Assembly: GCA_963713755.1 (NCBI GenBank)
Contig: CAVQMW010000007.1
Coordinates: forward strand, 220,465-284,464
Source: an uncultured delta proteobacterium
GTDB taxonomy: Bacteria > Desulfobacterota > Desulfobacteria > Desulfobacterales > CAVQMW01
Reading direction: 5' to 3'
DNA length: 64,000 bases
Position 1 is the first letter of the stretch. Each line of letters opens with the position of its first letter. This document shows, in pieces, positions 20,594 to 39,085 of the stretch. The position numbers and the translations under genes were made by a program. The notes below the pieces were generated by a model that did not search any database, was not told the DNA's origin, and saw only the letters and a program-made list of their open reading frames with translations.

Positions 20594-20615
20594 AGGTGGA
20601 TCTCCTAGCCCATCA

Positions 20616-23067: not shown

Positions 23068-23946
23068 TCAGTCAGGCCTCATCTCATGGACCGCCAGCAT
23101 GTCTTCCAGCCCTTCGGTGATGGTGACCAGACCGCCGGCGGCAACCAGCGACCCAAGCACCACGCCGCAGTGAGTCAGGGCATCGCTTTTATCCACGGCC
23201 CGGGCTACGGCCCGGGCAAACGCCCCAGGGGATAGGGCACCCACTCCCACCGTAACCGGCAATTGAGGGATGTCGCTATCCGGGTCCAGCAGATGGGCCG
23301 GAACTTGTCGGATGGCGGGATCAGGCACCCAACAGGCATTGGCAATGGCCGTTGCAGCCGCATCGGCATAGTTGGCGCGATGCGCCACGGCGGTTACCGC
23401 CGAAGCGATCCCGCGGGTAAAACTTCGCCCCCCAAGCCCGCTGGTGGTCACCCCCCAGCTCGAACTCCGGTCATCGAGCTCAAGGATATGGGTAACCTCC
23501 GGCCGGCGGATATTAGTTCGCACGCCGACACTTACGGTTTCCCCGGGAGCCAGGCGTATCGCCAGATCTCCTCCATTGTCCACAATCACCCGGGTCATGC
23601 CTCGCTCGACCAACCAATCAGCCACCCCATCGGCCAATGTTCCAGCCACGGCGGCCATAGGGGTAAGATCCGCATCGCCCATCGCCTGAGCAGCGGCAAT
23701 CATGGCCTGGGCGAGATCATCCGTGCCGCTCCATTCAATTTTCAATACCGGCCGGCACAAATCAGTCCGCAGGCGGGCAATCCGCTCCAGATAGTCGACT
23801 CCCCGCAAGGCCGCTCGCCGGGCAACATCGGTGCGCGGACCCTTTTGGTCAAACGCTTTGATGGAAAGCCCCATGGGACCGCATACCACGCGCACTGTCT
23901 CGCGGTCAGGCAGAATAGTAATCGGCTGTTGCCAAGAGATAGACAA
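23068..23946 (-). CDS. UPF0280 / ApbE-like superfamily protein
   Basis: 292 aa. MAAVAGTLADGVADWL and VIVDNGGDLAI resemble the ApbE-fold core. Assigned from memory of the UPF0280 family. Confidence 0.6.
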   Translation of the reverse strand: MSISWQQPITILPDRETVRVVCGPMGLSIKAFDQKGPRTDVARRAALRGVDYLERIARLRTDLCRPVLKIEWSGTDDLAQAMIAAAQAMGDADLTPMAAVAGTLADGVADWLVERGMTRVIVDNGGDLAIRLAPGETVSVGVRTNIRRPEVTHILELDDRSSSWGVTTSGLGGRSFTRGIASAVTAVAHRANYADAAATAIANACWVPDPAIRQVPAHLLDPDSDIPQLPVTVGVGALSPGAFARAVARAVDKSDALTHCGVVLGSLVAAGGLVTITEGLEDMLAVHEMRPD

Positions 23947-23966: not shown

Positions 23967-24668
23967 TTAATCCAATTGCGCCACTACAGCGATGCCCTTG
24001 GACTTCATCTCTTCGAGGGCTTTCAGCGTCGTGTCCGGGGCGACGCCTTTGCAGAGGGATTCCACCACGGTGACTTTATAGCCCGCGTTCAGGGCATCGA
24101 TAGCGGTTGCCTTGACGCAGTAGTCCGTAGCAATACCGTAGACGATCACCTCGCTGATCCCATTGCGCTTTAGCACTGTATCCATTTCAGTCTTGGCCCC
24201 ACCGTCATCCTGAAACCCGGAATAGCTGTCATACCGCTTGTCCTTGCCTTTTTTGACCACGGCCTGAAACAGATTGTTATCAACTAAAATCCGCGCATTG
24301 GTCGTGCCCTGAACGCAATGGGGCGGCCATAACACCTGGGTGCGGTCCTCGATCTGGATTGTCTCAAAAGGTTTCTTTTCGCTGTGGTTGGAGAAAAAGG
24401 AAACATGCTCGGCCGGATGCCAATCCTGGGTGGCAAAGATCAGATGCCCATTGGTGTGCAGGTTTTCGGTGACCTTTTGGACCTTTTCGACAAAGGCTTG
24501 ATCCGACTCGGGGACCGCCAAAGAACCATTCTTAAAAGTGGTGAAATCCCCCTGCATGTCCACCACGATCACCCCGACCTTGGATGTTTCTCCGCCAAAA
24601 CTGGCGGATAGCATCCCCCAAACAATGATCATCGCTACCGCTGAACTCATCACCCATAACGCTTTCAT
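23967..24668 (-). CDS. pncA: Nicotinamidase/pyrazinamidase (isochorismatase fold) with an N-terminal signal peptide
   Basis: VVDMQGDF (catalytic Asp), TQDWHPAEHVSF (metal His), KKG (Lys) and GIATDYCV (catalytic Cys). The leader is MKALWVMSSAVAMIIVWGMLSA. I chose the start with the GGAGAG RBS. Confidence 0.85.
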   Translation of the reverse strand: MKALWVMSSAVAMIIVWGMLSASFGGETSKVGVIVVDMQGDFTTFKNGSLAVPESDQAFVEKVQKVTENLHTNGHLIFATQDWHPAEHVSFFSNHSEKKPFETIQIEDRTQVLWPPHCVQGTTNARILVDNNLFQAVVKKGKDKRYDSYSGFQDDGGAKTEMDTVLKRNGISEVIVYGIATDYCVKATAIDALNAGYKVTVVESLCKGVAPDTTLKALEEMKSKGIAVVAQLD

Positions 24669-24713
24669 GACCATCTCTCCTTTCACTCAATTAAGGGTTG
24701 TAGGAAATTCAAT

Positions 24714-26021
24714 TTAATTTCCGGAAAGCAACTTTGGCAGCCATGTCGCCAACTGAGGAAAGAGTATCAGCAGAATGATATTGATATAAATGGCCACCAG
24801 ATAGGGCAGTGCTCCCTTGACAATGGTTCCGATGGGATAATCGGGCACCACGCTGCGCAAAACAAACAGGCTGAGGCCGAAGGGCGGCGTAATCGTGCTT
24901 TGTTCAGCGGCCATCACATACACGACACCCCACCAGATGGGATCGAACCCCAGACCGCCAACAATGGGCATCACAAACGGAAAGGTGAGAAAGAGCATGG
25001 ACCAGGAGTCGAAAAACATCCCCATGAAGAAGTACATCACAAAGAATCCCAGGAGGATCCCGTATTTTCCGATAGTCAGACCGAGCACCTGCTCCTTGAT
25101 TAAGGGGATCATGCCCGCCGAGTTGAATACATGGGAAATCAGAGTGCTCATGGCCATGATGAAGAGGGAAAACGAGGTGATTTTCACCGTGTCCAAAAGG
25201 CTGTCGGAGAATAATTTATAGGTCAGTTTACGGTATCCAAGGGTCAGCACAATACTCAAAAAAGCCCCCAGCCCGCCGGCCTCCGTGGGGGTCATCAAGC
25301 CGCCAAAAATGGCGCCCAACACGCCGATAATCATCAAGGCGAAAGGCAAAGCTTCCCACAAGGCCCGTCGCCGGTCGGCCCAGCTGTACTTGACAGGCGG
25401 CGGGGCCAGAGCCGGGTTGAGCTTGACCATCACCGTAATCGTCACCAGAAAGAGTGCCGTAAGGGTCAGGCCCGGGATCAGGCCCGCGGCGAGCAGATCT
25501 ACGATGGAGACCCCCTGCCAGGCGCCGTAAAGAATGAGTAGAATACTTGGTGGTATCAGGGGCGCCAAAACCGTTCCGGAAGCAATGGAGCCCAACGAAA
25601 AACTGGGGTTGTATTTGCGTTGCTCCATAACTGGAAATGCGATCTTACCGAAAGTGGCCGTCGCAGCTATGGTGGATCCGGACATGGCTCCAAAAACCGC
25701 ATTCCCGCATATGACTGAAACCCCCAAACCGCCGGGCAGGTGCCCCACCCACTTGTCGATGGCATTGAAGAGTCGCTCGTTGACGCCGGTGTTCCCCAGA
25801 ATGGAACCCATCAAGATAAAGAGCGGCATGGCTGTCAAGGTAAAGGAGTTCAATGAACCCCAAAGGGTGTAAGCGATCTGGTTGATGGGTTGATCCACGT
25901 ACCAGATCAAACCCACCACCGCTACAACACCTACCGACCAGGCAATTTCCAGCCCCAGCAACAGGAGCACCAGGAGGCCTGCGATCAGAGCCACGGCAAA
26001 AAGAGCATCGGCGCCCATCAA
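24714..26021 (-). CDS. dctM: TRAP transporter large permease (DctM)
   Basis: 435 aa, polytopic, with WVGHLPGGLGVSVICGNAVFGAMSGS. It overlaps the dctQ stop by 4 nt. Confidence 0.92.
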   Translation of the reverse strand: MMGADALFAVALIAGLLVLLLLGLEIAWSVGVVAVVGLIWYVDQPINQIAYTLWGSLNSFTLTAMPLFILMGSILGNTGVNERLFNAIDKWVGHLPGGLGVSVICGNAVFGAMSGSTIAATATFGKIAFPVMEQRKYNPSFSLGSIASGTVLAPLIPPSILLILYGAWQGVSIVDLLAAGLIPGLTLTALFLVTITVMVKLNPALAPPPVKYSWADRRRALWEALPFALMIIGVLGAIFGGLMTPTEAGGLGAFLSIVLTLGYRKLTYKLFSDSLLDTVKITSFSLFIMAMSTLISHVFNSAGMIPLIKEQVLGLTIGKYGILLGFFVMYFFMGMFFDSWSMLFLTFPFVMPIVGGLGFDPIWWGVVYVMAAEQSTITPPFGLSLFVLRSVVPDYPIGTIVKGALPYLVAIYINIILLILFPQLATWLPKLLSGN

Positions 26022-26533
26022 CCCGCCTCCTCGTCGTTGCCCGCGGCTTTACCCAAGGCTTTGATCAGCTCGATGAAAAGCTGAAAAACAAGCAGTATCG
26101 CGCCGATAATGATGACCATCTGAGGATAGGCAATGGGGGTGCGCAGCCAGCTTCCGCTACGGGTGCCAAACATCAGCGAAAAGGCAACAAGTTGATAACC
26201 AGCGATCACCGTAAACACGGCCAGAGCCAAGGCCAGTGACAAGGTAAAAACCCGCAGCCAGCCCCGCATCGAAGGCGATAGCTTATTGATCAAGAACTCC
26301 ACCCGCACATGGCTGCGTTCCTGCCAGGCGAAGGCCAGACCCATGATGGTTACGGTTACTAGTAAATACCCACCGAACTCCTCGGCAATGGAAAGCGGGT
26401 TGCGCAGAACGTAACGGGAGGTTACATCCACCAAAACCAATACCATCATGGCAAAGATCAGCCAGCCCTGAAGGTGACCGCTGAAGAATGTGATCAACTT
26501 TTCGATAAAGCGAAGTATCCGACCCATGGGCAA
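26018..26533 (-). CDS. dctQ: TRAP transporter small permease (DctQ)
   Basis: 171 aa, 4 TM helices. Confidence 0.85.
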   Translation of the reverse strand: MPMGRILRFIEKLITFFSGHLQGWLIFAMMVLVLVDVTSRYVLRNPLSIAEEFGGYLLVTVTIMGLAFAWQERSHVRVEFLINKLSPSMRGWLRVFTLSLALALAVFTVIAGYQLVAFSLMFGTRSGSWLRTPIAYPQMVIIIGAILLVFQLFIELIKALGKAAGNDEEAG

Positions 26534-26560
26534 TCACCCCAATGTCACACCAATTTTTTA

Positions 26561-27625
26561 TCACTGGCAGCTAAATCCACGATATTGTTCTACAGAGGCC
26601 TTGATGGCATCAAGAAGCTCCTTGCCGTCGTCGCCGGTCTTCTTCAGCCACTCCGCTTCTACGACTTTGCAATTTTCCAGCGCCTTGGCCTGATCGGGAT
26701 CCGGCAGGTTCACCCGCTTGACACCGGAAAGATCCACGGTATCGACACTCATCACGTACTCGGCGGTGGTGGAGTAATTTACCATGCGCTGAAGATCCCG
26801 GCCCACATCCATAACCACCTGCTGAAGATCCTCGGGAAGTTCATCAAAAGATTTCAGATTGAGCAGAGTCACCGCCGTCCAGGTGGGAGAAAGGGGGGTT
26901 AATACAAAATATTCGGAGACTTTGGCCAAACCGATGGAGTAGCCATAACCCAGGCTGGTCAGCACACCGTCAATGGTGCCTGCCATCATGGCCGGCGCCA
27001 GTTCGGAACCGGCAATGGTTACTGGGCTGGCCCCTAAGGCCTTGATTCCCAGGGTAGGAAGATAACCGCCCACGCGGATCTTCATCCCCTGCAGATCATC
27101 CAAGGATTTGATCTCTTTTTTGCTCCATACACCGTTGGCCGGGTCCCACTGGGTAATGAACCAGAACTTGAGATTGAGCTTCTTTAGCGTGCGGTCGTAG
27201 ATCTCCATCACTTTTGGATCTTCGTAGATGGCCAACTCTTCGGCTAACCCCTGAACCGGGTCTTCATCCACAATCCCCGGAATTTCGCCCCAGTTCCATA
27301 GGGGATAGGTTCCCGACTCCCAGGGCATGGCCACATCCGCGCTGTCGGCCTTGCCGGTAGCCACGGCCTGCAGTAACTGATCCGTAGGAAACATGCGGGG
27401 AATGATTTTCAGCTTGATGCGTCCCCCCGACCGCTCGTCCAGCATGCGCTGCATTTCGCCACAGGGGCGATAGACTTGAGCGGCTCGAAATTTAGGCCCC
27501 CAGATGTCATTCCAGGCAAATTTCAATTCGTAGACTTTGTCCGCGGCGACGGTTTGCACAGGAACTGCCATCAGCACTAAAGCCGCGAGCACCGCCAACC
27601 CCAACCGATTGCGTTTTCTTGTCAT
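26561..27625 (-). CDS. dctP: TRAP transporter substrate-binding protein (DctP family)
   Basis: 354 aa with a signal peptide (LAVLAALVLMAVPVQTVAA). KIRVGG and GVLTSLGYG are DctP-like. Confidence 0.88.
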   Translation of the reverse strand: MTRKRNRLGLAVLAALVLMAVPVQTVAADKVYELKFAWNDIWGPKFRAAQVYRPCGEMQRMLDERSGGRIKLKIIPRMFPTDQLLQAVATGKADSADVAMPWESGTYPLWNWGEIPGIVDEDPVQGLAEELAIYEDPKVMEIYDRTLKKLNLKFWFITQWDPANGVWSKKEIKSLDDLQGMKIRVGGYLPTLGIKALGASPVTIAGSELAPAMMAGTIDGVLTSLGYGYSIGLAKVSEYFVLTPLSPTWTAVTLLNLKSFDELPEDLQQVVMDVGRDLQRMVNYSTTAEYVMSVDTVDLSGVKRVNLPDPDQAKALENCKVVEAEWLKKTGDDGKELLDAIKASVEQYRGFSCQ

Positions 27626-27678: not shown

Positions 27679-29124
27679 TTAGCCACTGCTGAGTTTTGAA
27701 TCCGCCGCCGCCACCAATTGATCCAATTCCGCGCACAGTTCCGCGGGAGCAGCCGCACTGTTCTCTTTTGCCATGAGGACACGGTAATCCTCCATCACCC
27801 TGTCCATGAGGTTTTTCCGCCCGCTTTTTTCATAATCATCACGGGTCGGCCGTGTGAAGTTGTGAGGTACAAATGCATCGCGACAATGTTCCAATGTGTG
27901 ATCCGCCAGCATGAAATGCATCCCAGGCTCGACAGAGGTGAGAGGTTGCCAGCCCATTTGATCGTCATCCAGACTGAAGGGCATCACCAGCCGCCGGGCC
28001 ATGGCCAGGACCTCATTATCGACAATGAGCTGCAAAGGGCTGACCACGGTGGCAACTTCCAGCTGACCGGCACCGCCGAGGATGTCTAGTCCTGAAGCGG
28101 CCATCCAGGTGGTCAGCATGGCCCGCTCACTCATGGATTGCATATCGGGAATGGGTGAATCGGTCCCGCTGCCGTAATTATGCGTCGGCAGCCCAAACTC
28201 CTGTTTCAGAAACTGGTCTGCCAAGGAGGCTCCCCGCATGGCCTCCACACTGGCCTGCAGACTACGACCGGTGGCCATGTCCGTGGAGAAGATAATGGGG
28301 CAGGCCACCACGGGTGCACCGGGCTGAACGGCCTGGGCCATGGCGACCAGGGCCAGAATTTCGGCGACTGCAAGCAGCACAGTTCCCAGCACGGTGGCGG
28401 GGGCTGTCCCGCCGGCCCCGGGCAGAGAACAGGCGTGGATGGGAATACCAGCTCGGGCCGCTTGAAGGATAACCTCCATGTCCATCTGTTTGAAGGCCCG
28501 GGGCGTCAGGGAGCAGGCAATCATGGAGATCAGCGGATTATCCGACAGCGCCTTTCGGCCTCCGGCCGCGGCAGCCGCCAGATCGATCAGCGCAGCTACG
28601 CTCTCGGCGCAATAGGGCTGGACCCAAAGATGCTTGTCGGTATGCTTAAACAGCGTAGCCAGCGCGTGGATATCCGCCGTAGCCACGGGGGCATCGTCGG
28701 GAAACAGATAGGGCATGAAGCTGATTTCATCCAGATGGTTGACCAGCCGGGCCCAATCCGCCAACCGAGCCAAGGTCACTTTTTCCAATTCAGCAGTCTC
28801 AGGATCGATCCAGCCATGCCCCCCGGTACAGGTGCGGGCGTAGAAGGTGCCATCCGGTCGCGGCAGAGGCAGGGCCCGCTCCGGATTCCGAGCACCCAAT
28901 GTAAAAGTGCGCGGTGCCCGTGCCAGCAATTCTTCGAGGGCTTTACGGGGAAAGCATACCCGCCCGCTGTTGCTGTCCAATTTCAGGCCGGACCGAACCA
29001 ACGTCTCCATAATTTCAGGGTGGTTATCCAGTTTGACGCCATGGTCGGCAAGCAGAGTGAAAACCCTGGTTTTTAATGTGGCCCGTTGACTCTCATCAAG
29101 ATAGGAAAATTTAGCCATACTCAT
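27679..29124 (-). CDS. MttB-superfamily (trimethylamine methyltransferase-like) protein, non-pyrrolysine type
   Basis: 481 aa, an uninterrupted ORF with no internal TAG. It has the family-typical length and a TIM-barrel-like pattern (..YARTCTGGHG.., ..MIACSLTP.., ..GIPIHACSLPGAGGTAP.., ..LDILGGAGQLE..). Confidence 0.8.
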   Translation of the reverse strand: MSMAKFSYLDESQRATLKTRVFTLLADHGVKLDNHPEIMETLVRSGLKLDSNSGRVCFPRKALEELLARAPRTFTLGARNPERALPLPRPDGTFYARTCTGGHGWIDPETAELEKVTLARLADWARLVNHLDEISFMPYLFPDDAPVATADIHALATLFKHTDKHLWVQPYCAESVAALIDLAAAAAGGRKALSDNPLISMIACSLTPRAFKQMDMEVILQAARAGIPIHACSLPGAGGTAPATVLGTVLLAVAEILALVAMAQAVQPGAPVVACPIIFSTDMATGRSLQASVEAMRGASLADQFLKQEFGLPTHNYGSGTDSPIPDMQSMSERAMLTTWMAASGLDILGGAGQLEVATVVSPLQLIVDNEVLAMARRLVMPFSLDDDQMGWQPLTSVEPGMHFMLADHTLEHCRDAFVPHNFTRPTRDDYEKSGRKNLMDRVMEDYRVLMAKENSAAAPAELCAELDQLVAAADSKLSSG

Positions 29125-29214: not shown

Positions 29215-30741
29215 TTATGCAGACGGCTCATCATCATCAGGCAATTGGGCTTCAAAAGGCTTTATCGCCTCCACATGTCCGCCAATCGCCCGGTAGTCCT
29301 CTTCCGTCATGGTGTATTCCAAGGGGCAGATGGTGGCGGGGGTAGGCGTCCAGTAAAAAGACCCGCTCTTGACCTTTTCCACATCCACCATGAAGGAGAT
29401 CCCTCCCCCCGGCCAGATGAATCCCGGAGCTCCACCCACGGAGAGTTGAGCCTGGCCGGCGTGGACGGCGCGGGTGAGCTTGATGGGCGATTTGACCACT
29501 CCGGCGCGGGCGCTGCCCCCTGCCCCGCCGGTGTAGACCGCCGAAACCCGGGAGGGCTCACAGGAGGCGGCAAGGGCCTCAACCGCGGTGCGCGCCTTTT
29601 GCGTTAGAGGTATTTCAGCGAGTTCGCCTTTGACCGTGACCTGGTAAAGCACAGCGTTTTGGCCTGTGGTTTCAGTAATAAGAATGGTCATCCCAGGCCG
29701 GGCCACAGTCATGTCGATGTGCGCGATGACATCCGCCGGCCGGATGATGGAAGTACCGCCCCAGCCGTCGCCGTGGTCCCCGAAACAGCGTCCGGGGGTG
29801 CTCTCCTTAAAAACCAGCTGCACCCCGCTTGGGCGGGCGCCGACAAACTGGCCGGCCACATGGCGGCTCATCTGACCCGTGATATGGGAATCGAGGATGA
29901 TGGCCTCGTCAGCCGCTTCCTTGAGCAGGGGGGCAAAGAGCCCCATGGTGGCGCTGCCGCAGCCTACCCGCATGCTGGCCACTTCCTGGCCGTCGATGAT
30001 CGGAGGATGACCCACTTGAATTTCCAGTCGGCGGCCGTTTTCAATTTTCAGTTTCACCCGTTCGCGGTTGGCAATGCGGGTGATGGTGCGGGCCACCAAG
30101 AACCCGTTGGGCCCGGTGAGGCGGTTGACCCCCCCGATGTGCAGCATTTTGGATCCGTACTGCTCGGTTTCCACCATGCCCACCTCCCGCTTGCCCACTA
30201 GCACTCGGTCGCCCTCCCTTCCCAGAGGCACGTCCGTATCGATCTTTACGATGATGGAGCTGTAGCTTAGGGGCACTTCGGTGACCACGGTGACCACATC
30301 CACACCGTGCTGCTCTCCTTTTACAATGCGCGGGGCCGGTTTGCAGTCCGGATATGTGGTGCCGGATCCGATGGCGGTAATCAGGGGGCGGCGAATGGCT
30401 TGCGGAGGATCGCTGCCAACAATATCGGCCACAGCCTTGTATGCCAGGACCGGGGTGGTGCGTACCAATCGGCCTTCGCGGTTGAGGTAGCGCCGGCAGG
30501 CCCCTTCAAATCCAGGCTGAATCCAGCATTTGATGGGGCAGGCGTCACACTCCACGGCTTCCGCGGGCATGACCGGCGCGACGGTTAGGGCTTCTTGCTC
30601 GCACACCCGGAAACAGACTTTGCAATGGGTGCAGGCGTGATGATCGATAACTGCCTTCTTCTCCTTCAGCCGCACCGCCCCCACGGGGCAATCCCGCACG
30701 CAGTATCCGCAGCCTATGCATTTTTCGAGATCTACTTCCAC
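29215..30741 (-). CDS. Fe-S flavoprotein candidate, 6-hydroxynicotinate reductase-like
   Basis: 508 aa. Two ferredoxin motifs are present: C8xxC11xxC14xxxC18P and C37xxC40xxC43xxxC47. A third Cys group follows (C65xxC68xxxC72x9C82). The gene is adjacent to the enamidase-like gene. The call rests on cofactor-site count and context, not on an alignment. Confidence 0.55.
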   Translation of the reverse strand: MEVDLEKCIGCGYCVRDCPVGAVRLKEKKAVIDHHACTHCKVCFRVCEQEALTVAPVMPAEAVECDACPIKCWIQPGFEGACRRYLNREGRLVRTTPVLAYKAVADIVGSDPPQAIRRPLITAIGSGTTYPDCKPAPRIVKGEQHGVDVVTVVTEVPLSYSSIIVKIDTDVPLGREGDRVLVGKREVGMVETEQYGSKMLHIGGVNRLTGPNGFLVARTITRIANRERVKLKIENGRRLEIQVGHPPIIDGQEVASMRVGCGSATMGLFAPLLKEAADEAIILDSHITGQMSRHVAGQFVGARPSGVQLVFKESTPGRCFGDHGDGWGGTSIIRPADVIAHIDMTVARPGMTILITETTGQNAVLYQVTVKGELAEIPLTQKARTAVEALAASCEPSRVSAVYTGGAGGSARAGVVKSPIKLTRAVHAGQAQLSVGGAPGFIWPGGGISFMVDVEKVKSGSFYWTPTPATICPLEYTMTEEDYRAIGGHVEAIKPFEAQLPDDDEPSA

Positions 30742-30986: not shown

Positions 30987-32147
30987 TTACACAATTTGAG
31001 GCTTCCTCACGGGCGGTGGCGTATTACGGCTTTTCCCGACCACGACTTCCCCATCCACCAGCACCATGGCCACCGCGGGCAGATCCCCGACCTTGATGGC
31101 CGCCAGGGCATTTTCGCCCACCGATCCCATGGGCGTATCCATGATCACCAGGTCCGCGGGTTTCCCCGGAGCGATGGTTCCCTGATCTAGCTTGTGGACC
31201 CGGGCGGTGTTGCCGGTGGCCATGCAGAGCGCCTCCTCGGCTGAAAGATCGCTGAGACTGGCCAAGTGGACGATCGTGCGCAAAATCCCCAGAGGCACAA
31301 CACCTGTGCCCGAGGGCGCGTCGTTGCCGATGACGACCCGTTTGAGGGCACTGTGCGCTTTGCACAGTTTAAGGGCTTCCAGGGCCATTTTGGGATTGCC
31401 GCAATGGACGATTTCAATGGCCATCTCGGTTTCGGTAATCAATCGTCGGGCTTCGTCCAAGGCCACGGCCGTGGGTCCGCCGTTGATATGGGAGGCCACA
31501 TCGGGATCGGTACGGATCACCATATCGGCGGTGACCGTGCTGGATCCAGGGATGGAGGTGCCGCCGGTGTGCATCATCACGGTCATGCCGGCCGCTTTGG
31601 CCCAGCGCACCATGGGTGCGGCATCTTCGGGATCTTTCACGGATCCGAGGCCGATCTCTCCCACCAGACGGACGCCCTGGGCGGCCATCTCCTTAAAGTC
31701 GGCTTCGGTCAACCCCTTCTCCAGAATGACCGCGCCCCCGACCACCTTTCCGCCGCCGGGCCGGAAATTTTCAAAGGCCTTAGCGGCCAGGATCGCCAAC
31801 GCTTTGGTCCCCGCTGGATCCTTGGGCCGCCCGCTGAGGTGGACTTCCCCGGCGGAAATGAACGTCGTAACTCCGCCGTGAACGGCACTTTCCAGAAAAC
31901 CGATCTGCTTCTGGCGCGGGGTGTAGTCCATAAGCACACTGTGGCAGTGAGAATCGATCAGCCCCGGGGTCACCGTAGTTCCGGCGCAGTCGATCACCTT
32001 AGAAAAGTCATCAGCACTGAAATCGACGGCGGCACCCGCCGCAACGATTTTCCCGTTTTCAACGGCGAGCGCATTCCCGCGCAGAATGGGCGCCTGGATA
32101 TCTCCTGAAATTATCGCGCCGATATTCTTAAGAAGTACCTTGGACAT
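30987..32147 (-). CDS. Enamidase-like amidohydrolase (1,4,5,6-tetrahydro-6-oxonicotinate hydrolase candidate)
   Basis: 386 aa. GLIDSHCH is the metal-binding HxH motif. Other motifs are GGVTTFISAG, HTGGTSIPGSS, SHINGGPT, GNDAPSGTG and PGKPADLVIMD. The length and these blocks match my memory of the E. barkeri enamidase. Confidence 0.72.
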   Translation of the reverse strand: MSKVLLKNIGAIISGDIQAPILRGNALAVENGKIVAAGAAVDFSADDFSKVIDCAGTTVTPGLIDSHCHSVLMDYTPRQKQIGFLESAVHGGVTTFISAGEVHLSGRPKDPAGTKALAILAAKAFENFRPGGGKVVGGAVILEKGLTEADFKEMAAQGVRLVGEIGLGSVKDPEDAAPMVRWAKAAGMTVMMHTGGTSIPGSSTVTADMVIRTDPDVASHINGGPTAVALDEARRLITETEMAIEIVHCGNPKMALEALKLCKAHSALKRVVIGNDAPSGTGVVPLGILRTIVHLASLSDLSAEEALCMATGNTARVHKLDQGTIAPGKPADLVIMDTPMGSVGENALAAIKVGDLPAVAMVLVDGEVVVGKSRNTPPPVRKPQIV

Positions 32148-32216: not shown

Positions 32217-34502
32217 TTAGTCTGCTCTTGCCGGCCCAAAATGCCCGCCCTTGATACTCGCCTCGAGGACCCGTTCCAGATTGGCCGGCAAAGTATAGAT
32301 CCGCTCTCCCAGAGCGTCGGCAATGGCGTTGAGTATGGCCGGAGCCGTTGGAATCAGGGCCGGTTCGCCGACCCCTTTCGCGCCGAAGGGTCCGCTGGGT
32401 TCGGGGGATTCGATGATGATGGGCACGATTTCGGGCATATCCGCAATGGTGGGGATAGGGTAGTCCTTCATGGAAATCGTGCTCCCGGGGTGAAATTCTT
32501 CCATCAAACCAAAGCCGATGCCCATGGCCACCCCGCCGCAAATCTGCCCGATCACATTCCCGGGGTGGATGGCCCGGCCCACATCATGCGCGGCCACCAC
32601 CTTCTCCACCTTGACTTCACCGGTGAGTACATCGACGGCGACCCCAACCAGCTGGCAGGCAAATGCGTAGGTCGCGTAGGGCACGCCCTGGCCGGTTTCA
32701 AGGTCCAGGGGAACCGTGTCGGGGTCGAAATAACCGGGCCACTCCAGCCCCCCGCCTTTGGCCTGGATGCGCCGGGCCAGTTGGGAAAAGGAAACCCGTT
32801 TCTCGGGGTCCCTGTTTAGAACGACTTCTCCGTTGTCAAACACCAAGCTCCGCTTAGGCGCTCGCAAACGGTTGACTGCTTCAGTGAGCAACACATCTGA
32901 GAGTTTGGTACAGGCATCGTGTACGGCATTGCCGGAGATGTAAGTCTGGCGGCTGGCCGAGGTGGCGCCGGCATTGGTAGTCAACAGGGTATCCGCCGCC
33001 ACTAGCCGAATTTCATGGGCGGCGAGTCCCAAAACCTCACCGGCGATCTGGGTGAGCACCGTGGAGGAGCCCTGGCCGATGTCCGCACAGCCGCTGTAGA
33101 GGGTAACCCGGCCTTCAAGGTCCATCTCCACCCGGGCCGTGGAGGGGTTCTGCACGCCGGTGTTGCCGATGCCGTACCACATGGCAGCGATGCCCACCCC
33201 CCGCTTCACATAAGGCCCTGCATCTTTGACCTTTTCCCGAGCCAGGGCCCAATGGGGTTGGACCGCCCGCAGGCAATCCATGAATCCCACGCTGTCGGTG
33301 AGCTCCTGGCCCGTGGCGGTGACAGCGCCGACGTGAAGGGCATTGCGCAGGCGAATTTCCAGGGGATCGATATCGAGCGCCCGGGCGTGGAGATCGAGCT
33401 GGCTTTCATGAGCCACGGCGGCCTGGGGTGTGCCAAAGCCGCGCATGGCACCGCAATAGGGATTGTTGGTGTAGACACAGCGGCTTTCAATATCCACGTG
33501 GGGAATTTGATAAGGCCCCGTGATATGCACCGCCGCCCGGGAGGTTACCGCCAGGCCGTAAGAGGCGTAGGCGCCGGTGTCGCAAATGATTCTCGCCCGC
33601 AGCGCCCGCAAGCGCCCCTGAGCGTCGGTTCCGGTTTTAAGTTCAATCGTGAGGGGGTGCCGTTTGGCCGTGGCCAGATAGGCCTCTTCCCGGCTGTAAA
33701 CGTAGCGCACGGGACGCTTGAGATGGTAAAGGGCCAGCCCGATAAATCCCTGGACATTCATGTCCAGCTTGGAACCGAACCCGCCCCCGGTGGCGGCCTG
33801 AATGACGCGCACCCGATCATCGGCCAGACCCAGGAGGGTGACCACCTCTTTGTGGTCGTAATGGGGATTCTGGGTAGAGGCGTAAATCACCAGGGTGCCG
33901 TCGTCATCCACGAACCCCAGACCGGCATCGGGTTCCAGGTAGTTGTGCTCCACCATGCCGGTGCGGTAGGTTTTCTCTACCACGCTGGCGCATTGCGCCC
34001 ACTGACCCTCGGGATCACCGTGTTTGATTCGGCGCGTCACCAGGCAGTTGCCCTTAGGGTGAAGCGACGGGGCCTGGGGTTTTAGCGCTTCTTCGGGGTC
34101 GAACACCGCCGGCAGGGGCTCGTAGATAACTTCAATCGCTTTGAGGGCTGCTGCGGCGGCGGCTTCATTTTCGGCCGCCACCAGAGCCAGCGGTTCGCCT
34201 TTGCAGCGCACCTTGCCCGCAGCCAGCAAGGGTTGGTCCTTGTTGATAATCCCCAAGGCATTTTTGCCGGGAATATCATGGGCCGTGAAAACGGCGACCA
34301 CCCCGGGCAGCGCCGCGGCTGCCTGGGTGTCGATTTCGACCAGGGATGCGTGGGGGTGGGAACTGCGTAAGGCTTTCAGCACCAGGGGCGCATCGGCGCT
34401 CAGGTCCGCGCAGAAGATTGGCGCGCCCTTGAGCTTTTCCTGAGCGCCGAATCGCGGAATGCTGCGGCCGATGGATTTGAAACGAGATTCCATAGGATTC
34501 AT
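32217..34502 (-). CDS. Molybdopterin-binding large subunit of a xanthine-dehydrogenase-family hydroxylase (nicotinate dehydrogenase candidate)
   Basis: 761 aa. GGGFGSK, CGAMRGFG and FGAKGVGEP are typical of the XDH/aldehyde oxidase family. It is a single chain rather than split. Confidence 0.9.
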   Translation of the reverse strand: MNPMESRFKSIGRSIPRFGAQEKLKGAPIFCADLSADAPLVLKALRSSHPHASLVEIDTQAAAALPGVVAVFTAHDIPGKNALGIINKDQPLLAAGKVRCKGEPLALVAAENEAAAAAALKAIEVIYEPLPAVFDPEEALKPQAPSLHPKGNCLVTRRIKHGDPEGQWAQCASVVEKTYRTGMVEHNYLEPDAGLGFVDDDGTLVIYASTQNPHYDHKEVVTLLGLADDRVRVIQAATGGGFGSKLDMNVQGFIGLALYHLKRPVRYVYSREEAYLATAKRHPLTIELKTGTDAQGRLRALRARIICDTGAYASYGLAVTSRAAVHITGPYQIPHVDIESRCVYTNNPYCGAMRGFGTPQAAVAHESQLDLHARALDIDPLEIRLRNALHVGAVTATGQELTDSVGFMDCLRAVQPHWALAREKVKDAGPYVKRGVGIAAMWYGIGNTGVQNPSTARVEMDLEGRVTLYSGCADIGQGSSTVLTQIAGEVLGLAAHEIRLVAADTLLTTNAGATSASRQTYISGNAVHDACTKLSDVLLTEAVNRLRAPKRSLVFDNGEVVLNRDPEKRVSFSQLARRIQAKGGGLEWPGYFDPDTVPLDLETGQGVPYATYAFACQLVGVAVDVLTGEVKVEKVVAAHDVGRAIHPGNVIGQICGGVAMGIGFGLMEEFHPGSTISMKDYPIPTIADMPEIVPIIIESPEPSGPFGAKGVGEPALIPTAPAILNAIADALGERIYTLPANLERVLEASIKGGHFGPARAD

Positions 34503-34699: not shown

Positions 34700-35551
34700 T
34701 TAAGTCAGAGGCGCCATGAGGCGCATGAACAGTCCCTGGATGGCCGGTTCTTTGTACACCGTGGAGTGGCGGCGGCCGGTGATGGCGATCATGGTCTCCG
34801 CCATGATCCGGCCCGCCTCCCAAATCCGTTCCGCCGTGGGCCGCTGATCGAACAGAAACGCTTCCACTGCGGTCATACGATGGGGGGTCGGCGTACAGGA
34901 ACCTAAAGCCACGCGAATAAAATCTATCTTACCGTTTTCCTTCCGGCGGACCATGGCCGCCAGATTGAGCCGGGCAATCGCCAGCGCCCGTCGACGGCCG
35001 ATTTTTTGAAAATCCGCAAAGTCCGCTTGGGCCGGTTTGAGAATGAAGCGGGTGATCACTTCTCCAGGCGGCAGGGCACAGGCATAGGGCCCCGAGGCCA
35101 CGGAAGTAATGGGGATGCGGCGCAATCCTCCTTTGCCGGCGAGCTCCACATCAGCCTCATGGATAACCAGGGGCGGCAGAGTGTCCCCGCAAGGAGAACA
35201 GTGCGCCACGTTACCCCCAATCGTGGCCACATTTCGAATCTGGCGGCTGGCAAAGGTTTGGGCGCATTTGTTGAGGGATGGCGCGTGTTGCGCCAGAAGC
35301 TCGGAATTTTCGATCTCGCTGAGGGTGACCGCAGCGCCCACGGAAAGTTCTTCCCCGTTGAGTTCTAAAACCCTGAGTTCGGGGAGGCGGCTCACATCCA
35401 AAAGAACATCGGGAGTCCGTTCTCCGGACCGGAGATCCACCACCACATCGGTCCCACCGGCCAGAATTTGGGTGCTGCGGCCCTTTTCAGCCAGAACATC
35501 CAACGCCGCATTCAGAGAGTCAGGGCGAATGTAATCGAATTCAGCCGGCAT
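34700..35551 (-). CDS. FAD-binding subunit of the Mo-hydroxylase (CoxM/XdhB-like)
   Basis: 283 aa with the FAD_binding_5 pattern ILAGGTDVVVDL and ATIGGNVAH. Confidence 0.9.
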   Translation of the reverse strand: MPAEFDYIRPDSLNAALDVLAEKGRSTQILAGGTDVVVDLRSGERTPDVLLDVSRLPELRVLELNGEELSVGAAVTLSEIENSELLAQHAPSLNKCAQTFASRQIRNVATIGGNVAHCSPCGDTLPPLVIHEADVELAGKGGLRRIPITSVASGPYACALPPGEVITRFILKPAQADFADFQKIGRRRALAIARLNLAAMVRRKENGKIDFIRVALGSCTPTPHRMTAVEAFLFDQRPTAERIWEAGRIMAETMIAITGRRHSTVYKEPAIQGLFMRLMAPLT

Positions 35552-36035
35552 CGGTTGTTCCCTCCACCTTTTGGGCAGCAGCTTCCACGGATTCGAAGAT
35601 CTGCTGGTAGCCGGTACAGCGACACAAATTACCGGCCAACGCAGAACTTACCGCAGCCCGGTCCGGATAAGGATTTTCCCGTAAGAGGGCATCGGTGCTC
35701 ATCAACAAACCCGGTGTGCAAAACCCGCATTGCACGCCGTGCTGCTCTAAGAACGCCTCTTGGATCGGATGCAGCCCTTCCTCCGGAGCCAGCCCCTCCA
35801 CGGTGGTCACCTGGCGCCCATCCAGCTGAGCCGCCAACATCAGGCAGGAATTAACCGCCCGTCCGTCGACCTGGATAGTGCAGGCGCCGCATTCGCCGAT
35901 CCCACAGCCCTCCTTGGTGCCTTTGAGGCCCAATTCTTCTCTGAGCAGCTGCAACGCGGTCAGCGCGGCGGGAATTTCAAGGGATAGGGCTTTACCGTTG
36001 AGTATGATCTGGATGTTTACGCGAGGAGGATTCAT
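35541..36035 (-). CDS. [2Fe-2S]-binding small subunit of the Mo-hydroxylase (CoxS/XdhC-like)
   Basis: GCGIGECGACTV-type (CGIGECGACTIQVDG) and CGFCTPG motifs. The start is uncertain; I chose MNPPRV, but the ORF extends to 36089. Confidence 0.9.
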   Translation of the reverse strand: MNPPRVNIQIILNGKALSLEIPAALTALQLLREELGLKGTKEGCGIGECGACTIQVDGRAVNSCLMLAAQLDGRQVTTVEGLAPEEGLHPIQEAFLEQHGVQCGFCTPGLLMSTDALLRENPYPDRAAVSSALAGNLCRCTGYQQIFESVEAAAQKVEGTTDAG

Positions 36036-36096
36036 GGGCCGCTGCCTTCTGCCGATATGCATGTCACCGTTGAACGGTGTGGATTTCAAGTCCGGC

Positions 36097-36176: not shown

Positions 36177-36770
36177 CTATCGCAGCCCATCCTCACCTTT
36201 GGCATCTTCTTTCCTGAGCCCCCCGATTCGGGGCAACGGTCGTCCGGAATCGGTAACGGCTACAATCAGAACCAATTCATCGGCGCGGGGAGCATCGGGG
36301 ATCCGCACCTCCATGGCATCGAAGTGGGAACGCACAAAGGCGGCATCCTTATACCCCAGGGGGACATCCAGGGCAGCACCGGGGAAAGCCAGTTTTTTGG
36401 CTGAGGGGATGAGGGCCTTACCCCCGCCGACATTTCCCCGCATGGGCTTTCCCAGAGCCGGATGCATGATGGCCGCGCAGTGTTCCAACTCGCCATTTTC
36501 TCCCACCAGGGCGCCCTTGCCGTAACTCTCCACCTCCTCGGGAGCGATTCCCAGGGCGGCCACCGCTTTTTGGGTGAGGATTGCTCCCAATTCTTCGCTG
36601 ATCTCAATCAGCGAAGTAAGATCTTCCTGGTAGCTACCGGCGAATGGATTGGCAAACACCGCGGCAACCGCGGCTTTACGGGTGGCGGGCGATACATCCC
36701 GGGCGCCATCCCGGTGGGTTTCTTCCACAATGGTATAAAATTTTCGAATATGAAGTTGGGACTTGCTCAT
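36177..36770 (-). CDS. 'Amino acid synthesis' family protein (PF06684/DUF1185-like), function unknown
   Basis: About 197 aa. FANPFAG, GKGALVGENGELEHCAAIMH and GGGKALIPSAKK match my memory of this family. I chose the ATG with the GGAGAG RBS. Confidence 0.6.
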   Translation of the reverse strand: MSKSQLHIRKFYTIVEETHRDGARDVSPATRKAAVAAVFANPFAGSYQEDLTSLIEISEELGAILTQKAVAALGIAPEEVESYGKGALVGENGELEHCAAIMHPALGKPMRGNVGGGKALIPSAKKLAFPGAALDVPLGYKDAAFVRSHFDAMEVRIPDAPRADELVLIVAVTDSGRPLPRIGGLRKEDAKGEDGLR

Positions 36771-36803
36771 GGCGCTCTCCATCTCTGGTTCGGTCTTGCG
36801 GGC

Positions 36804-38291
36804 TTAGGCCCAGCGCTCGGTAACCGTCTTTTGATCCAAAAACAGGCGCATAGAATCGATGCGGGATTTGGCCAGCCCAAAGGCCGACTCATTCTTGGAG
36901 CCCAGGGGAAAGAAGGCAAAGGGCTGGGGCACGGGAACGTTGACTCCCACATTGCCCACATCGGCCTGCTTGATAAAGTTTCGGGCCACATGGCCGTCAC
37001 GGGTGAAGATGCAGCCCGAATGGCCGTAGTTGTCTTTTTCATTCATCCAGGCCAGGGCCTGGTCAAGGTCGTCGGCCCGCAGCAGATTGGCTACCGGTCC
37101 GAAGGACTCCTGGCGGGCAATGTGCATATCAGGATGGACTCCTTCGAAGATTGTCGCCCCCAAGAAAAATCCGTTTCTATAAGGCTCCGCCAATTTCGGC
37201 TGGCGGCCGTCCAAGATCATCCGTGCACCTTCATTGAGTCCCATCTCAATGAATTTGAGCACCTTGTTCTTACCTGCTTCGGTGACCAAGGGACCCATTT
37301 CCGTGGCTTCATCCAGTCCGTACCCAAGGGGCATGGCCGCCGAGGCGGCAACGAATTTCTCCTTGAACTCGTCATACGCATCACCGATCACCACGATGTT
37401 GTCGGCTCCCAGACAGCGCTGCCCGGCCATGCCGTAACAGCCCCGCAGCAAGCCGGCCACAGCCTTGTTCAGATCGGCATCGGGCATCAGCACCACATGG
37501 TTTTTGCCGTTACCGTTGACCGAGGCCTCCTTACCCAAGCGCCCGGCCTGGGCGAAGAGTTCCAGCCCCACGCTTGAGGAGCCGATAAACCCTACCCCTT
37601 TGATTGCGGGGTGCTCCAGAATCATCTGATTAATCTTGCGGCCACCGTAGATCAGATTGTTTAAGCCCGGCGGAAATCCTTTGACTTTGCTGACAGTCTC
37701 AAAAATGGCCTGGGCACAAATGGGATCAGCGGAGCTGGGGCTGACGATCACCGGACAACCGCTGGCCAGGGCGTAGGGCACATAGGAGGACCAGGCATGC
37801 ATGGGAATGTTGTTGGGCGTGATGATCAGAAAGACTCCCCGAGGCTCCCAGTAAAGGGTTTGATCCAAACCCATGGCCAGGTCGGGCACATATTCACCCT
37901 TGGTCATCAGCATCAGCGCCGAACAGGCCGATTCGATATTCTCAATACAGCGCCGCAGCGTCCCCCGGGCTTCACCGATGGTACGGCCATGATCCTGAAC
38001 CAGGATTCGGCAGAGCCGGTCATAGTCCAGCTCAAACTGTGCGCGCAAATCAAAGAGGCAGCGCGCCTTGTCCCGCAGAGAAACCTGCTTCCAGGCCGCA
38101 AGTGCCCCCTGGGCGGCTTCGATGGCCTCGGTAACCTCGCCCTCGCTGCTGACGGCAAAGGCGCCGATCTCTTTTCCGGTGGCCGGGTTCACTACTGCCT
38201 GGCTCAGAGGTTCAGAGGCGCTGCGCCACCTACCGTTGATGTACATCTTTAATTTGCCGTAATGACCCCGGACTTCTTCCAAAACTGCCAT
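36804..38291 (-). CDS. CoA-acylating (methyl)malonate-semialdehyde dehydrogenase-family aldehyde dehydrogenase
   Basis: 495 aa. The catalytic Cys lies in AGQRCLG. The family-specific C-terminus is PVPQPFAFFPLGSKNESAFG (compare MmsA/IolA PAPMAFFPFSGWKNSFYG). The Rossmann motif is GFIGSSSVG. Confidence 0.85.
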   Translation of the reverse strand: MAVLEEVRGHYGKLKMYINGRWRSASEPLSQAVVNPATGKEIGAFAVSSEGEVTEAIEAAQGALAAWKQVSLRDKARCLFDLRAQFELDYDRLCRILVQDHGRTIGEARGTLRRCIENIESACSALMLMTKGEYVPDLAMGLDQTLYWEPRGVFLIITPNNIPMHAWSSYVPYALASGCPVIVSPSSADPICAQAIFETVSKVKGFPPGLNNLIYGGRKINQMILEHPAIKGVGFIGSSSVGLELFAQAGRLGKEASVNGNGKNHVVLMPDADLNKAVAGLLRGCYGMAGQRCLGADNIVVIGDAYDEFKEKFVAASAAMPLGYGLDEATEMGPLVTEAGKNKVLKFIEMGLNEGARMILDGRQPKLAEPYRNGFFLGATIFEGVHPDMHIARQESFGPVANLLRADDLDQALAWMNEKDNYGHSGCIFTRDGHVARNFIKQADVGNVGVNVPVPQPFAFFPLGSKNESAFGLAKSRIDSMRLFLDQKTVTERWA

Positions 38292-38374: not shown

Positions 38375-39085
38375 CTAGTCAATGGAGATTGCCATTTCCG
38401 CAGTGGCTTGGGAATCTCCTTGTCTCAACGCTTCATGGGTCGGGGCAATGAGTTTGGCCGCCACCTCCAACGCTTCCAATACATGGGTTTTCATCAATCG
38501 GCACGCCTTGGCCCGCTCCCGGCGGCGAATGGCGCTTAAGATATCCTGGTGGAAACGGATGGATTCCCTGAGATGCCGGGTATCCTGGAGGGTGCGGTAG
38601 CTGAAGCGCTGGATCTGCAAGTGCAATGTGGAGGCGAATTGCGTCAGGCGTTCGTTGGCGGCCACCTCTAAAATCAGATGGTGATAGGCGTGGTGCAGCT
38701 TCTGATAACGCAGCAAATCCGGCGGCTGCCGGCTCACGCAGGACTCCATCTCATCCACCAGGTGCCCCAGGTGGGTAATATGTTGGTCATGGAACCGGTC
38801 CAGAGCTATATCGACGGCCATGGCATACAGATGGGCCTTGAGGGTGTAGACCTCCCAAACATCCTTAAGGGTCATTTCGGTGACAAAGACGCCCCTGCGG
38901 GGCCGGCGAACCACCAGACCTTCGGCTTCCAGGCCTTTGAAGGCCTCCCGGACAGGCGGCCGGCTGATATTGAGACCGCTGGCGATCTCCTCTTCCTTGA
39001 TCTGCTGGCCGGGCGCCAGATCCCCGCGGGCAATGCGTTTCATGATATGGTCTCGGGCCAGATCGGATAAGGATTGAACTTCCAT
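38375..39085 (-). CDS. GntR-family regulator with an FCD (FadR C-terminal) ligand domain
   Basis: 236 aa. The wHTH is EEEIASGLNISRPPVREAFKGLEAEGLV, followed by a helical FCD domain with His residues. Confidence 0.9.
   Translation of the reverse strand: MEVQSLSDLARDHIMKRIARGDLAPGQQIKEEEIASGLNISRPPVREAFKGLEAEGLVVRRPRRGVFVTEMTLKDVWEVYTLKAHLYAMAVDIALDRFHDQHITHLGHLVDEMESCVSRQPPDLLRYQKLHHAYHHLILEVAANERLTQFASTLHLQIQRFSYRTLQDTRHLRESIRFHQDILSAIRRRERAKACRLMKTHVLEALEVAAKLIAPTHEALRQGDSQATAEMAISID

Follow-up and report, generated by a model that had tools for sequence, protein, structure and literature searches.

The 64-kb stretch of DNA analysed here (the window) carries the nicotinate (vitamin B3) catabolic island of a Desulfobacterales bacterium of the sulfate-reducer type. 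With a probability that we put at about 60%, the island joins an upper module shared with other nicotinate degraders to an aldehyde dehydrogenase (ALDH) of the methylmalonate-semialdehyde dehydrogenase type (MSDH; MmsA/IolA, EC 1.2.1.27), which replaces the B12-dependent lower branch and converts 2-formylglutarate to glutaryl-CoA. This reading builds on gene content, residues, synteny and exclusivity with B12 genes, all of which were seen directly.

Organisation of the nicotinate island

The nicotinate fermentation cluster of Eubacterium barkeri, reportedly described by Alhapel et al. in 2006, is represented in our comparisons by two clusters of the same type (L061 and L062). In the window, all the genes described below lie on the minus strand. 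A gene for a GntR/FCD-family regulator (38375-39085; Pfam GntR and FCD), which probably regulates the island, precedes the gene for the MSDH-like ALDH (36804-38291, 495 aa; 'nic-ALDH'), assigned by HMM, PDB matches, residues and synteny. After 21 nt follows the gene for a PF06684 (AA_synth/DUF1185) protein (36177-36782, 201 aa), a TgnF homolog. As the earlier note had placed them, these two ORFs stand immediately ahead of the genes for Mo-hydroxylase, enamidase and Hnr, on the same strand.

Specifically, the Mo-hydroxylase, a nicotinate dehydrogenase candidate, is encoded as a [2Fe-2S] small subunit (35541-36089; Pfam Fer2_2/Fer2), an FAD subunit (34700-35551; Pfam FAD_binding_5 and CO_deh_flav_C) and a molybdopterin large subunit (32217-34502; Pfam MoCoBD_1/2 and Ald_Xan_dh_C). 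The enamidase (30987-32147), the THON hydrolase that forms 2-formylglutarate and NH3, matches the E. barkeri enamidase (PDB 2VUN) with E = 2.5e-145, residues 1-385 of 386 being aligned. The 6-hydroxynicotinate reductase (Hnr) homolog (29215-30741) has an N-terminal 4Fe-4S domain and shares 47% identity with the Fer4 protein that takes the place of Hnr in L061. The window therefore holds the clustered Mo-hydroxylase subunits, Hnr and enamidase of a THON-type upper module.

Further along lie a non-pyrrolysine MttB-superfamily methyltransferase (27679-29124; Pfam MTTB), a TRAP transporter DctP-DctQ-DctM (24714-27625; Pfam), an isochorismatase-family hydrolase and nicotinamidase candidate (23967-24686; Pfam Isochorismatase), an AbpE/UPF0280-like protein (23068-23946) and a second TRAP system (19287-23047; Pfam), made up of DctP (21929-23047), DctQ (20616-21152) and a DctM split in two (20291-20593 and 19287-20318). 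The methyltransferase, which may serve the demethylation of N-methylnicotinate, has homologs in L063, L156 and L157 and is recurrent in Desulfobacterales nicotinate islands. The AbpE-like protein shows a weak ApbE match and 45% identity to the AbpE_bact gene adjoining Hnr in L003; such a gene adjoins Hnr in L061, L062 and L151 too, and is thus a companion of Hnr in every cluster type. A GntR gene ahead of the ALDH is found also in L003, L156, L157 and L158. A promoter and terminator scan of the window gave no signal above shuffled expectation and is therefore no guide to operon borders.

The absence of the B12-dependent lower pathway from the island, as claimed in the earlier note, is confirmed over the 64-kb window: tblastn with queries taken from L061 gave no match at E <= 1e-3 for Hgd, Hmd, Mgm, Mii, MutL, Dml, DmdA or DmdB, and Pfam scans of all the other large ORFs returned no B12-binding, PrpF, aconitase, PEP_mutase or NAD_binding_2 domain. 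The Hgd, Hmd, Mgm, Mii, DmdAB and Dml set of the full E. barkeri-type pathway is accordingly not present within the window, and neither are genes of the glutaryl-CoA dehydrogenase route. By Pfam scans and tblastn of the window, the ALDH is the sole aldehyde-handling enzyme of the island.

The ALDH belongs to the MSDH superclade

The MmsA-type features that had been ascribed to the ALDH are indeed there: it carries AGQRCLG (residues 289-295), FAFFPLGSKNESAFG (residues 458-472) and all the MSDH diagnostic residues. It is a Pfam Aldedh protein (368 bits), whose top NCBIfam family is TIGR01722 (MMSDH), at 349.7 bits and so below the curated cut-off of 448.5, and its top PDB matches are all MSDHs (MSDH structures 1T90, 4ZZ7, 5TJR and 4E4G). 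Specifically, R114, N161 and R292-C293 correspond to Arg124, Asn169 and Arg301-Cys302 of MSDH, and Glu268 is absent, with NGNGKNH at the site where hydrolytic ALDHs read ELGGK. Arg124 and Arg301 of MSDH reportedly bind the beta-carboxylate of the substrate (work of Talfournier et al. in 2011). By direct residue count, Arg124, Asn169 and Cys302 are invariant in all 130 Desulfobacterota and all 6 Bacillota nic-ALDHs; Arg301 is conserved across them in alignment blocks, and Glu268 is absent. The non-MSDH outgroup ALDHs have ELGG and are missing Arg124.

In the phylogeny, an MSDH-like superclade that includes the nic-ALDHs is separated from other ALDHs with 100% bootstrap support. Within it, the nic-ALDHs form two lineages, one of Desulfobacterota and one of Bacillota (100% support each), outside the canonical MSDH clade (86%); their union in a single clade receives 38% support only, and the tree gives no firm branching order among these three lineages. 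The ALDH is 33-39% identical to canonical MSDHs, from which both nic lineages differ at four common sites, H424, K466, K475 and R477, with one exception, at K466. Canonical MSDHs have Asn in place of H424 and Trp in place of K466. The basic residues K466, K475 and R477 would fit a substrate with an extra carboxylate. In addition, the NAD-specifying Glu195 is replaced in nic-ALDH, and the Desulfobacterota lineage has Ser in place of Lys192.

In conclusion, the placement of the ALDH in the MSDH superclade by its diagnostic residues is well supported, and the canonical MmsA/IolA clade, at 86% support, leaves it out. Its MSDH chemistry is extrapolated, since the score lies below the TIGR01722 cut-off, and the enzyme is probably CoA-acylating and decarboxylating.

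Proposed route to glutaryl-CoA

The upper module, which is shared with Eubacterium barkeri and Proteobacteria, is expected to act in three steps: nicotinate would be converted to 6-hydroxynicotinate by the Mo hydroxylase, 6-hydroxynicotinate to THON by Hnr with its AbpE-like companion, and THON to 2-formylglutarate and NH3 by the enamidase with its PF06684 companion. The lower branch would then consist of one branch-specific gene, that of the MSDH-type ALDH, in place of the B12-dependent branch of E. barkeri. By analogy with MSDH, Cys293 would attack the aldehyde of 2-formylglutarate and a hydride would pass from the adduct to NAD(P)+; the thioacyl-enzyme would lose the 2-carboxylate as CO2, Arg114 and Arg292 being the putative counterparts of the carboxylate-binding Arg124 and Arg301. 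As no Glu268 is present to activate water, CoA would release the product as glutaryl-CoA, which could enter the glutaryl-CoA dehydrogenase route. We infer this substrate and these products, glutaryl-CoA and CO2, as the best available reading, because the MSDH residues are present and the ALDH is embedded only in clusters without the B12 set.

It is also conceivable, if rather unlikely, that the ALDH oxidises glutarate semialdehyde to glutaryl-CoA or glutarate after a loss of CO2 that is spontaneous or mediated by the PF06684 protein, since Azorhizobium, in the work of Kitts in 1992, reportedly decarboxylates before oxidation and passes through free glutarate. The trigonelline pathway, in the account attributed to Perchat (2018), is likewise said to decarboxylate ahead of the TgnE/TgnF aldehyde step. 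Moreover, PF06684 is kept in all the cluster types and duplicated in the proteobacterial ones, which do without an ALDH within 10 kb. However, both beta-carboxylate arginines of MSDH are retained in the ALDH, which groups with MSDH and not with succinate or glutarate semialdehyde dehydrogenases (227 bits against the semialdehyde dehydrogenase family TIGR01780, compared with about 350 for TIGR01722), and in the B12-type clusters, where PF06684 also occurs, decarboxylation would destroy the substrate of Hgd. Direct action of the ALDH on 2-formylglutarate is thus the reading that we retain.

Distribution of the ALDH among nicotinate clusters

The ALDH, PF06684, enamidase, Hnr and Mo hydroxylase genes were found together in ALDH-anchored loci of two phyla, comprising Desulfocicer niacini, Desulfospira, three Desulfobacterales MAGs/genomes, Desulfomonile and four Bacillota contigs. 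D. niacini is a cultured sulfate reducer that degrades nicotinate (PMC12700296). The contig scan used 8-mers from a single ALDH query; it yielded mostly unrelated ALDHs with at most 30% identity, and L009-L015 were the only informative loci.

In a metagenome sample of 29 enamidase-anchored loci that contain Hnr and span at least 9 kb, nic-ALDH was present in 12 and a B12 or Hgd gene in 9, while none had both and 8 had neither. The corresponding Fisher p of 0.003 is descriptive only, because the 29 loci are phylogenetically related.

These data bear on the improbable case in which the genome encodes a B12 lower pathway outside the window and the ALDH is a side-branch or aldehyde-detoxifying enzyme. 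Our analysis covered 64 kb of a contig of ~690 kb, and one Bacillota cluster (L013) carries an Hgd-like gene beside the ALDH, both of which would suit such a case. On the other hand, the genes of the lower pathway directly adjoin enamidase and Hnr in all the B12-type loci sampled, no ALDH-type locus sampled has Mgm, Mii, Dml or Hmd within 10 kb, and the position of the ALDH and its GntR regulator are conserved in many genomes.

The PF06684 protein is part of the upper module

The PF06684 protein scores 241 bits against Pfam AA_synth (gathering threshold 27) and matches PDB entries 2QTP (E = 6.8e-75) and 3BYQ (E = 1.2e-33); its AlphaFold model is poor (pLDDT 53.5). It is 37.5% identical to the PF06684 gene product of a tgn cluster, and the crystallised SPO0826 is located in a nicotinate cluster. 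Conserved genes of unknown function in proteobacterial nicotinate clusters have been noted before (PMC3511419).

According to the earlier note, the PF06684 protein and the ALDH together might replace the lower pathway, and the note called for a test of their co-occurrence with enamidase. The ALDH occurs with enamidase in clusters without the B12 set only; PF06684 is present in 27/29 Hnr-containing loci whatever their lower branch. Because the gene also comes immediately after enamidase in the E. barkeri-type B12 clusters, PF06684 is part of the conserved upper module, not a lower-branch replacement. A joint role of the two proteins as the replacement branch is accordingly quite improbable, even though their genes are adjacent, 21 nt apart, and a PF06684 protein, TgnF, is reported to stimulate an ALDH, namely succinate-semialdehyde dehydrogenase in the breakdown of trigonelline (PMC7913881, citing Perchat 2018): PF06684 is equally present in B12-type clusters and in the ALDH-free proteobacterial ones, where it is duplicated, and it pairs with enamidase-like genes even where Hnr is absent. 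Mean PF06684 identity is 67% among ALDH-type clusters across the two phyla and 55-57% against B12-type clusters, some of which reach 63-68%. A role of PF06684 as 2-formylglutarate decarboxylase was down-weighted, since B12-type clusters also carry the gene.

The family is linked with N-heterocycle pathways in which an enamide is hydrolysed, not with 'amino acid synthesis', and by analogy with TgnF we infer that the protein most likely acts as a helper, handing the aldehyde from enamide hydrolysis to the next dehydrogenase. The 'first pathway context' that had been anticipated for PF06684 is pre-empted by TgnF, already known in trigonelline catabolism (PMC7913881).

Finally, the chance presence of an ordinary MmsA/IolA of valine, beta-alanine or inositol catabolism beside nicotinate genes is hardly credible, and genomic context and phylogeny led us to reject a canonical MmsA role: MSDH is the closest characterised family, but the ALDH lies outside the canonical clade at the low identity given above, its nicotinate synteny is kept across two phyla, and no mmsB, iol or aminotransferase neighbour, of the kind that the earlier note would have counted against its reading, occurs in any of about 25 loci, although genes of this sort do flank canonical MSDHs on plasmids.

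Significance of the proposed gene assignment

To our knowledge, the B12-dependent route of E. barkeri is the only one with known genes for the steps beyond 2-formylglutarate. Our literature searches found neither a gene assignment for the glutarate/glutaryl-CoA route of 1992 nor a description of an ALDH acting in the THON pathway. A corrinoid-independent branch, as proposed in the earlier note, is not new as such, since biochemical work on Azorhizobium had already established a conversion of 2-formylglutarate via glutarate to glutaryl-CoA (Kitts 1992, cited in PMC3511419). The B12-free route has therefore been known since 1992, and it is the gene assignment that appears new.

If our reading is correct, a single enzyme leading from the enamidase reaction to glutaryl-CoA would account for the complete oxidation of nicotinate by sulfate reducers such as Desulfocicer niacini in the absence of a corrinoid mutase. 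The MSDH family would gain a dicarboxylic semialdehyde among its substrates, and the ALDH would be an annotation marker separating three lower branches. The record of PF06684 is also corrected, the family being linked to N-heterocycle enamide hydrolysis, with SPO0826 as a member in a nicotinate cluster.

We offer more tentatively the wider proposal that MSDH-type enzymes were recruited, possibly twice, as a third lower branch from THON, and that PF06684 proteins are a general helper class. Such a branch would be corrinoid-independent, thioester-conserving and typical of anaerobic respirers (Desulfobacterota and Peptococcaceae-like Bacillota). The helpers would process or hand over the 2-formyl-dicarboxylates or enamines formed by enamide hydrolysis in the degradation of nicotinate, trigonelline and other N-heterocycles.

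Comparison with known systems

With MSDH, the ALDH has in common Cys302, Asn169, Arg124 and Arg301, the lack of Glu268, and the KNH and C-terminal AFFP motifs. It differs in its nicotinate context, as opposed to valine, inositol or beta-alanine, in its score below the TIGR01722 cut-off, in its own H424, K466, K475 and R477, and in the replacement of Glu195.

The island resembles the E. barkeri-type cluster in its nicotinate dehydrogenase subunits, Hnr, AbpE-like gene, enamidase (59% identity) and PF06684 gene, which there follows enamidase. In contrast, the window is without Hgd, Hmd, Mgm, Mii, the MutL-like reactivase, Dml and DmdAB, and has instead the MSDH-like ALDH, TRAP transporters and the MttB-like gene.

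The Azorhizobium caulinodans, Bradyrhizobiaceae and Roseobacter type is similar in that THON leads into a C5 branch, independent of corrinoids, to glutaryl-CoA, with Hnr, the AbpE-like gene, enamidase and PF06684 conserved (R. pomeroyi locus L151). Those clusters, however, have two PF06684 paralogs and no ALDH within 10 kb, a CoA-transferase or CoA-ligase gene near enamidase, with free glutarate as the reported intermediate, and a transporter of the ABC type where the window has TRAP systems.

As regards TgnF/TgnE of Acinetobacter baylyi trigonelline catabolism, the hydrolase partner is an alpha/beta hydrolase and not an amidohydrolase, the annotation of TgnE is that of an ordinary succinate-semialdehyde dehydrogenase, and PF06684 identity is about 37%; nevertheless, the two systems share an order of events in which enamide hydrolysis yields an aldehyde acid that is taken up by a dehydrogenase, with a PF06684 protein involved.

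An MSDH-like aldehyde dehydrogenase in the nicotinate island

ORF calls, motifs and domain matches confirmed the two genes singled out in the earlier note, one encoding an aldehyde dehydrogenase (ALDH; 495 aa, 36804-38291) and the other a protein with a PF06684 domain (201 aa, 36177-36782), both on the minus strand. They belong to a co-directional array with short gaps between genes, in the order GntR regulator, ALDH, PF06684, Mo-hydroxylase S, F and L, enamidase and a homolog of 6-hydroxynicotinate reductase (Hnr), followed by an MttB-like gene, TRAP DctPQM, isochorismatase, an AbpE-like gene and a second TRAP set. The enamidase aligns over its full length with E. barkeri enamidase 2VUN (E = 2.5e-145, 59% identity), and on this comparison its identity is secure. 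The isochorismatase-family hydrolase inside the island (23967-24686, minus strand), found also in comparison loci L063, L069 and L094, is a plausible nicotinamidase bringing nicotinamide into the pathway. DctM of the second TRAP system (19287-20593, minus strand) is split into two ORFs of 100 and 343 aa; the gene may be frameshifted or a pseudogene, or the assembly may be wrong here.

The ALDH, 100% identical to a protein on record from a Desulfobacterales MAG, carries AGQRCLG at residues 289-295 and FAFFPLGSKNESAFG at 458-472. Among NCBIfam models TIGR01722 (MMSDH) scores highest, although its 349.7 bits fall short of the 448.5 cut-off, and the best PDB matches are without exception methylmalonate-semialdehyde dehydrogenases (MSDHs). 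Plasmid matches at E <= 1e-60 number 428, none of them reaching 40% identity to it, and the annotated entries among those listed are MSDHs. When the window ALDH was aligned with solved MSDH structures (five) and with outgroup ALDHs, the MSDH key residues Arg124, Asn169 and Arg301-Cys302 were found in it as R114, N161 and R292-C293; the hydrolytic Glu268 is missing (NGNGKNH, versus LGGAKNH in canonical MSDHs and ELGGK in the outgroup). When residues were counted, R114, N161 and C293 were invariant across 130 Desulfobacterota and 6 Bacillota relatives. In neighbour-joining trees (200 bootstraps), support was 100% for the MSDH-like superclade and for each of the two nicotinate-linked lineages, Desulfobacterota and Bacillota, and 86% for canonical MSDH, with no resolved branching order among the three lineages. 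All together, these data bear out the MmsA/IolA-type features previously ascribed to the ALDH, which is MSDH-like by every sequence criterion checked and predicted to have an MSDH-type function, yet is placed in a sister lineage outside canonical MSDH.

Four sites share a residue in both nicotinate-linked lineages and differ in canonical MSDHs: H424 (Asn in canonical MSDHs), K466 (K or R; Trp of GGWK, except for one haloarchaeal MSDH with Arg), K475 (K or R; His or Asn) and R477 (Tyr, His or Asn). The three extra basic residues, K466, K475 and R477, would match a substrate that bears a second carboxylate. In addition, at window residues 184 and 187, the near-universal Lys192 is Ser in 130/130 Desulfobacterota nicotinate-linked ALDHs, and the NAD-specifying Glu195 is lost in both lineages, being Lys, Arg or Ser in the Desulfobacterota one. 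These changes hint at an altered cofactor site, perhaps of the NADP+ type.

Three lower-branch variants

At the ALDH-anchored loci, every ALDH lies alongside nicotinate genes. The loci come from Desulfocicer (Desulfococcus) niacini, a sulfate reducer described as degrading nicotinic acid (PMC12700296), Desulfospira joergensenii, three further Desulfobacterales genomes or MAGs, Desulfomonile MAGs and four Bacillota contigs. PF06684, enamidase, Hnr and Mo hydroxylase are also present wherever the flank is long enough, and the shortest contigs show just PF06684 or TRAP genes beside the ALDH. An association with valine, inositol or beta-alanine catabolism, named beforehand as counting against the proposal, was not seen, since mmsB, iol and aminotransferase genes never occur beside the ALDH at these loci.

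Within the 64-kb window, the claimed absence of the B12-dependent lower pathway holds. The reference was L061, an E. barkeri-type cluster with an enamidase 97% identical to 2VUN and the gene set Hnr, AbpE, Hgd, NdhFSLM, Ena, PF06684, Mgm, Mii, MutL, Dml, Hmd and DmdAB; its lower-pathway proteins gave zero tblastn matches in the window at E <= 1e-3, and Pfam scans of all other large ORFs detected no B12-branch domains. The scans of the large ORFs detected no acyl-CoA dehydrogenase either, so the window does not encode the steps leading on from glutaryl-CoA.

As an independent sample, metagenome contigs were scanned with an enamidase alignment and 80 loci were annotated against reference proteins, lower branches being counted in the 29 Hnr-containing loci that span 9 kb or more. 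Near the enamidase, 12/29 had a nicotinate-type ALDH, 9/29 the B12 set or Hgd, 8/29 neither and 0/29 both (Fisher p = 0.003, a purely descriptive value, as the loci are phylogenetically related). Seven of the eight loci with neither are of a proteobacterial type, with a CoA-transferase or CoA-ligase near the enamidase in place of the ALDH; this type has no ALDH within 10 kb. We conclude from these locus types that one conserved upper module is joined to three lower-branch variants, and that the ALDH is a marker of one.

The Bacillota nicotinate cluster L013 (9072-13115) has an MSDH-like ALDH, then an MFS transporter, then an Hgd-like dehydrogenase (NAD_binding_2) sharing 43% identity with E. 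barkeri-type Hgd; Mgm, Mii and Dml are absent from the contig. The two enzymes may work as a pair resembling MmsA and MmsB, with 2-formylglutarate and 2-(hydroxymethyl)glutarate as substrates. In a complete Desulfobacterales genome (CP070771.1; L156, 3594-15813) the island is apparently decayed, with an isochorismatase fragment of 73 aa, a Mo large subunit cut short at 466 aa, no enamidase or Hnr, and intact GntR, ALDH and PF06684.

The PF06684 protein and other recurring island genes

The PF06684 gene is not specific to any lower branch: it comes straight after the enamidase in L061 and L062, both of the B12 type, is present in 27/29 loci with Hnr (the other two are truncated at a contig edge) and is duplicated in proteobacterial clusters. 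The idea that it helps to replace the B12 branch is thus not borne out. Nor is this its first pathway context, as the earlier note had supposed, since the gene is present in trigonelline (tgn) clusters and TgnF of A. baylyi reportedly stimulates the oxidation of succinate semialdehyde that depends on TgnE (PMC7913881, citing Perchat 2018). Common to both pathways is an enamide hydrolysis giving an aldehyde acid that a dehydrogenase consumes; by analogy, PF06684 proteins may act at this aldehyde hand-over. About 20 polar residues invariant across all contexts, including E98, E100, H101, H107, R151 and H153, suggest that they are enzymes, with tautomerase, dehydratase, enamine hydrolase or decarboxylase as candidate chemistries.

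Pairs of PF06684 and an enamidase-like amidohydrolase also occur without Hnr, for example in Thermomicrobium roseum (L007, 9035-13179) and Agrobacterium vitis pAt (L005, 11399-13194), and in L101, L104, L105, L107, L117 and L121. Their neighbours are other Mo hydroxylases, a ring-hydroxylating dioxygenase or an FAD monooxygenase, and they probably represent the same ring-opening module in pathways for other N-heterocycles. SPO0826 (PDB 2QTP), a crystallised DUF1185 member 61% identical to the window protein, is encoded in the Ruegeria pomeroyi nicotinate-type cluster (L151, 3507-18032: XDH subunits, Hnr-like, AbpE, two PF06684 genes, ABC transporter, MarR, family III CoA-transferase, enamidase). 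Its gene adjoins a branched-chain-type ABC transporter, on which the 'amino-acid metabolism' proposal for SPO0826 had rested (PMC2954203).

A non-pyrrolysine MttB-superfamily methyltransferase recurs within Desulfobacterales nicotinate islands, and the D. niacini cluster has, between ALDH and PF06684, a corrinoid protein together with a methyltransferase of the pterin-binding kind (window 27679-29124, minus strand; L063; L156, 7272-8711; L157, 7401-8840; L001, 12848-14416). These genes point to a corrinoid-dependent route by which an N-methylpyridinium compound, trigonelline for example, is demethylated to nicotinate; our literature search surfaced no MttB-family enzyme for trigonelline. In each of the three cluster types Hnr has an AbpE/UPF0280-like companion gene, which in most cases comes directly downstream of it (window 23068-23946, minus strand; L003, 18140-19051; L061, 2824-3672; L151, 8561-9430). 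E. barkeri Hnr is reported to have a covalently bound flavin, for which the AbpE-like protein is a candidate flavin transferase.

Proposed reaction and comparison with known routes

Because 2-formylglutarate is a 2-substituted malonate semialdehyde, we propose an MSDH-type cycle for the ALDH, which has the residues required at every step. A thiohemiacetal would form on the enzyme from 2-formylglutarate, hydride transfer would give NAD(P)H, the thioacyl-enzyme would lose CO2 by beta-decarboxylation, and CoA attack would yield glutaryl-CoA, the overall products being glutaryl-CoA, CO2 and NAD(P)H. The main rival places a separate decarboxylation first and has the ALDH oxidise glutarate semialdehyde; two points speak against it, the retention of both carboxylate-binding arginines and the fact that B12-type clusters have PF06684 as well. 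By inference, 2-formylglutarate would be the ALDH substrate and glutaryl-CoA its product, and the comparative evidence supports this ALDH proposal well.

A corrinoid-independent branch is already old biochemistry, and our literature search found no paper giving an ALDH to it. The Azorhizobium route is reported, where PMC3511419 cites Kitts 1992, to pass through free glutarate, and the CoA-transferase or CoA-ligase of the proteobacterial clusters matches the route as described there.
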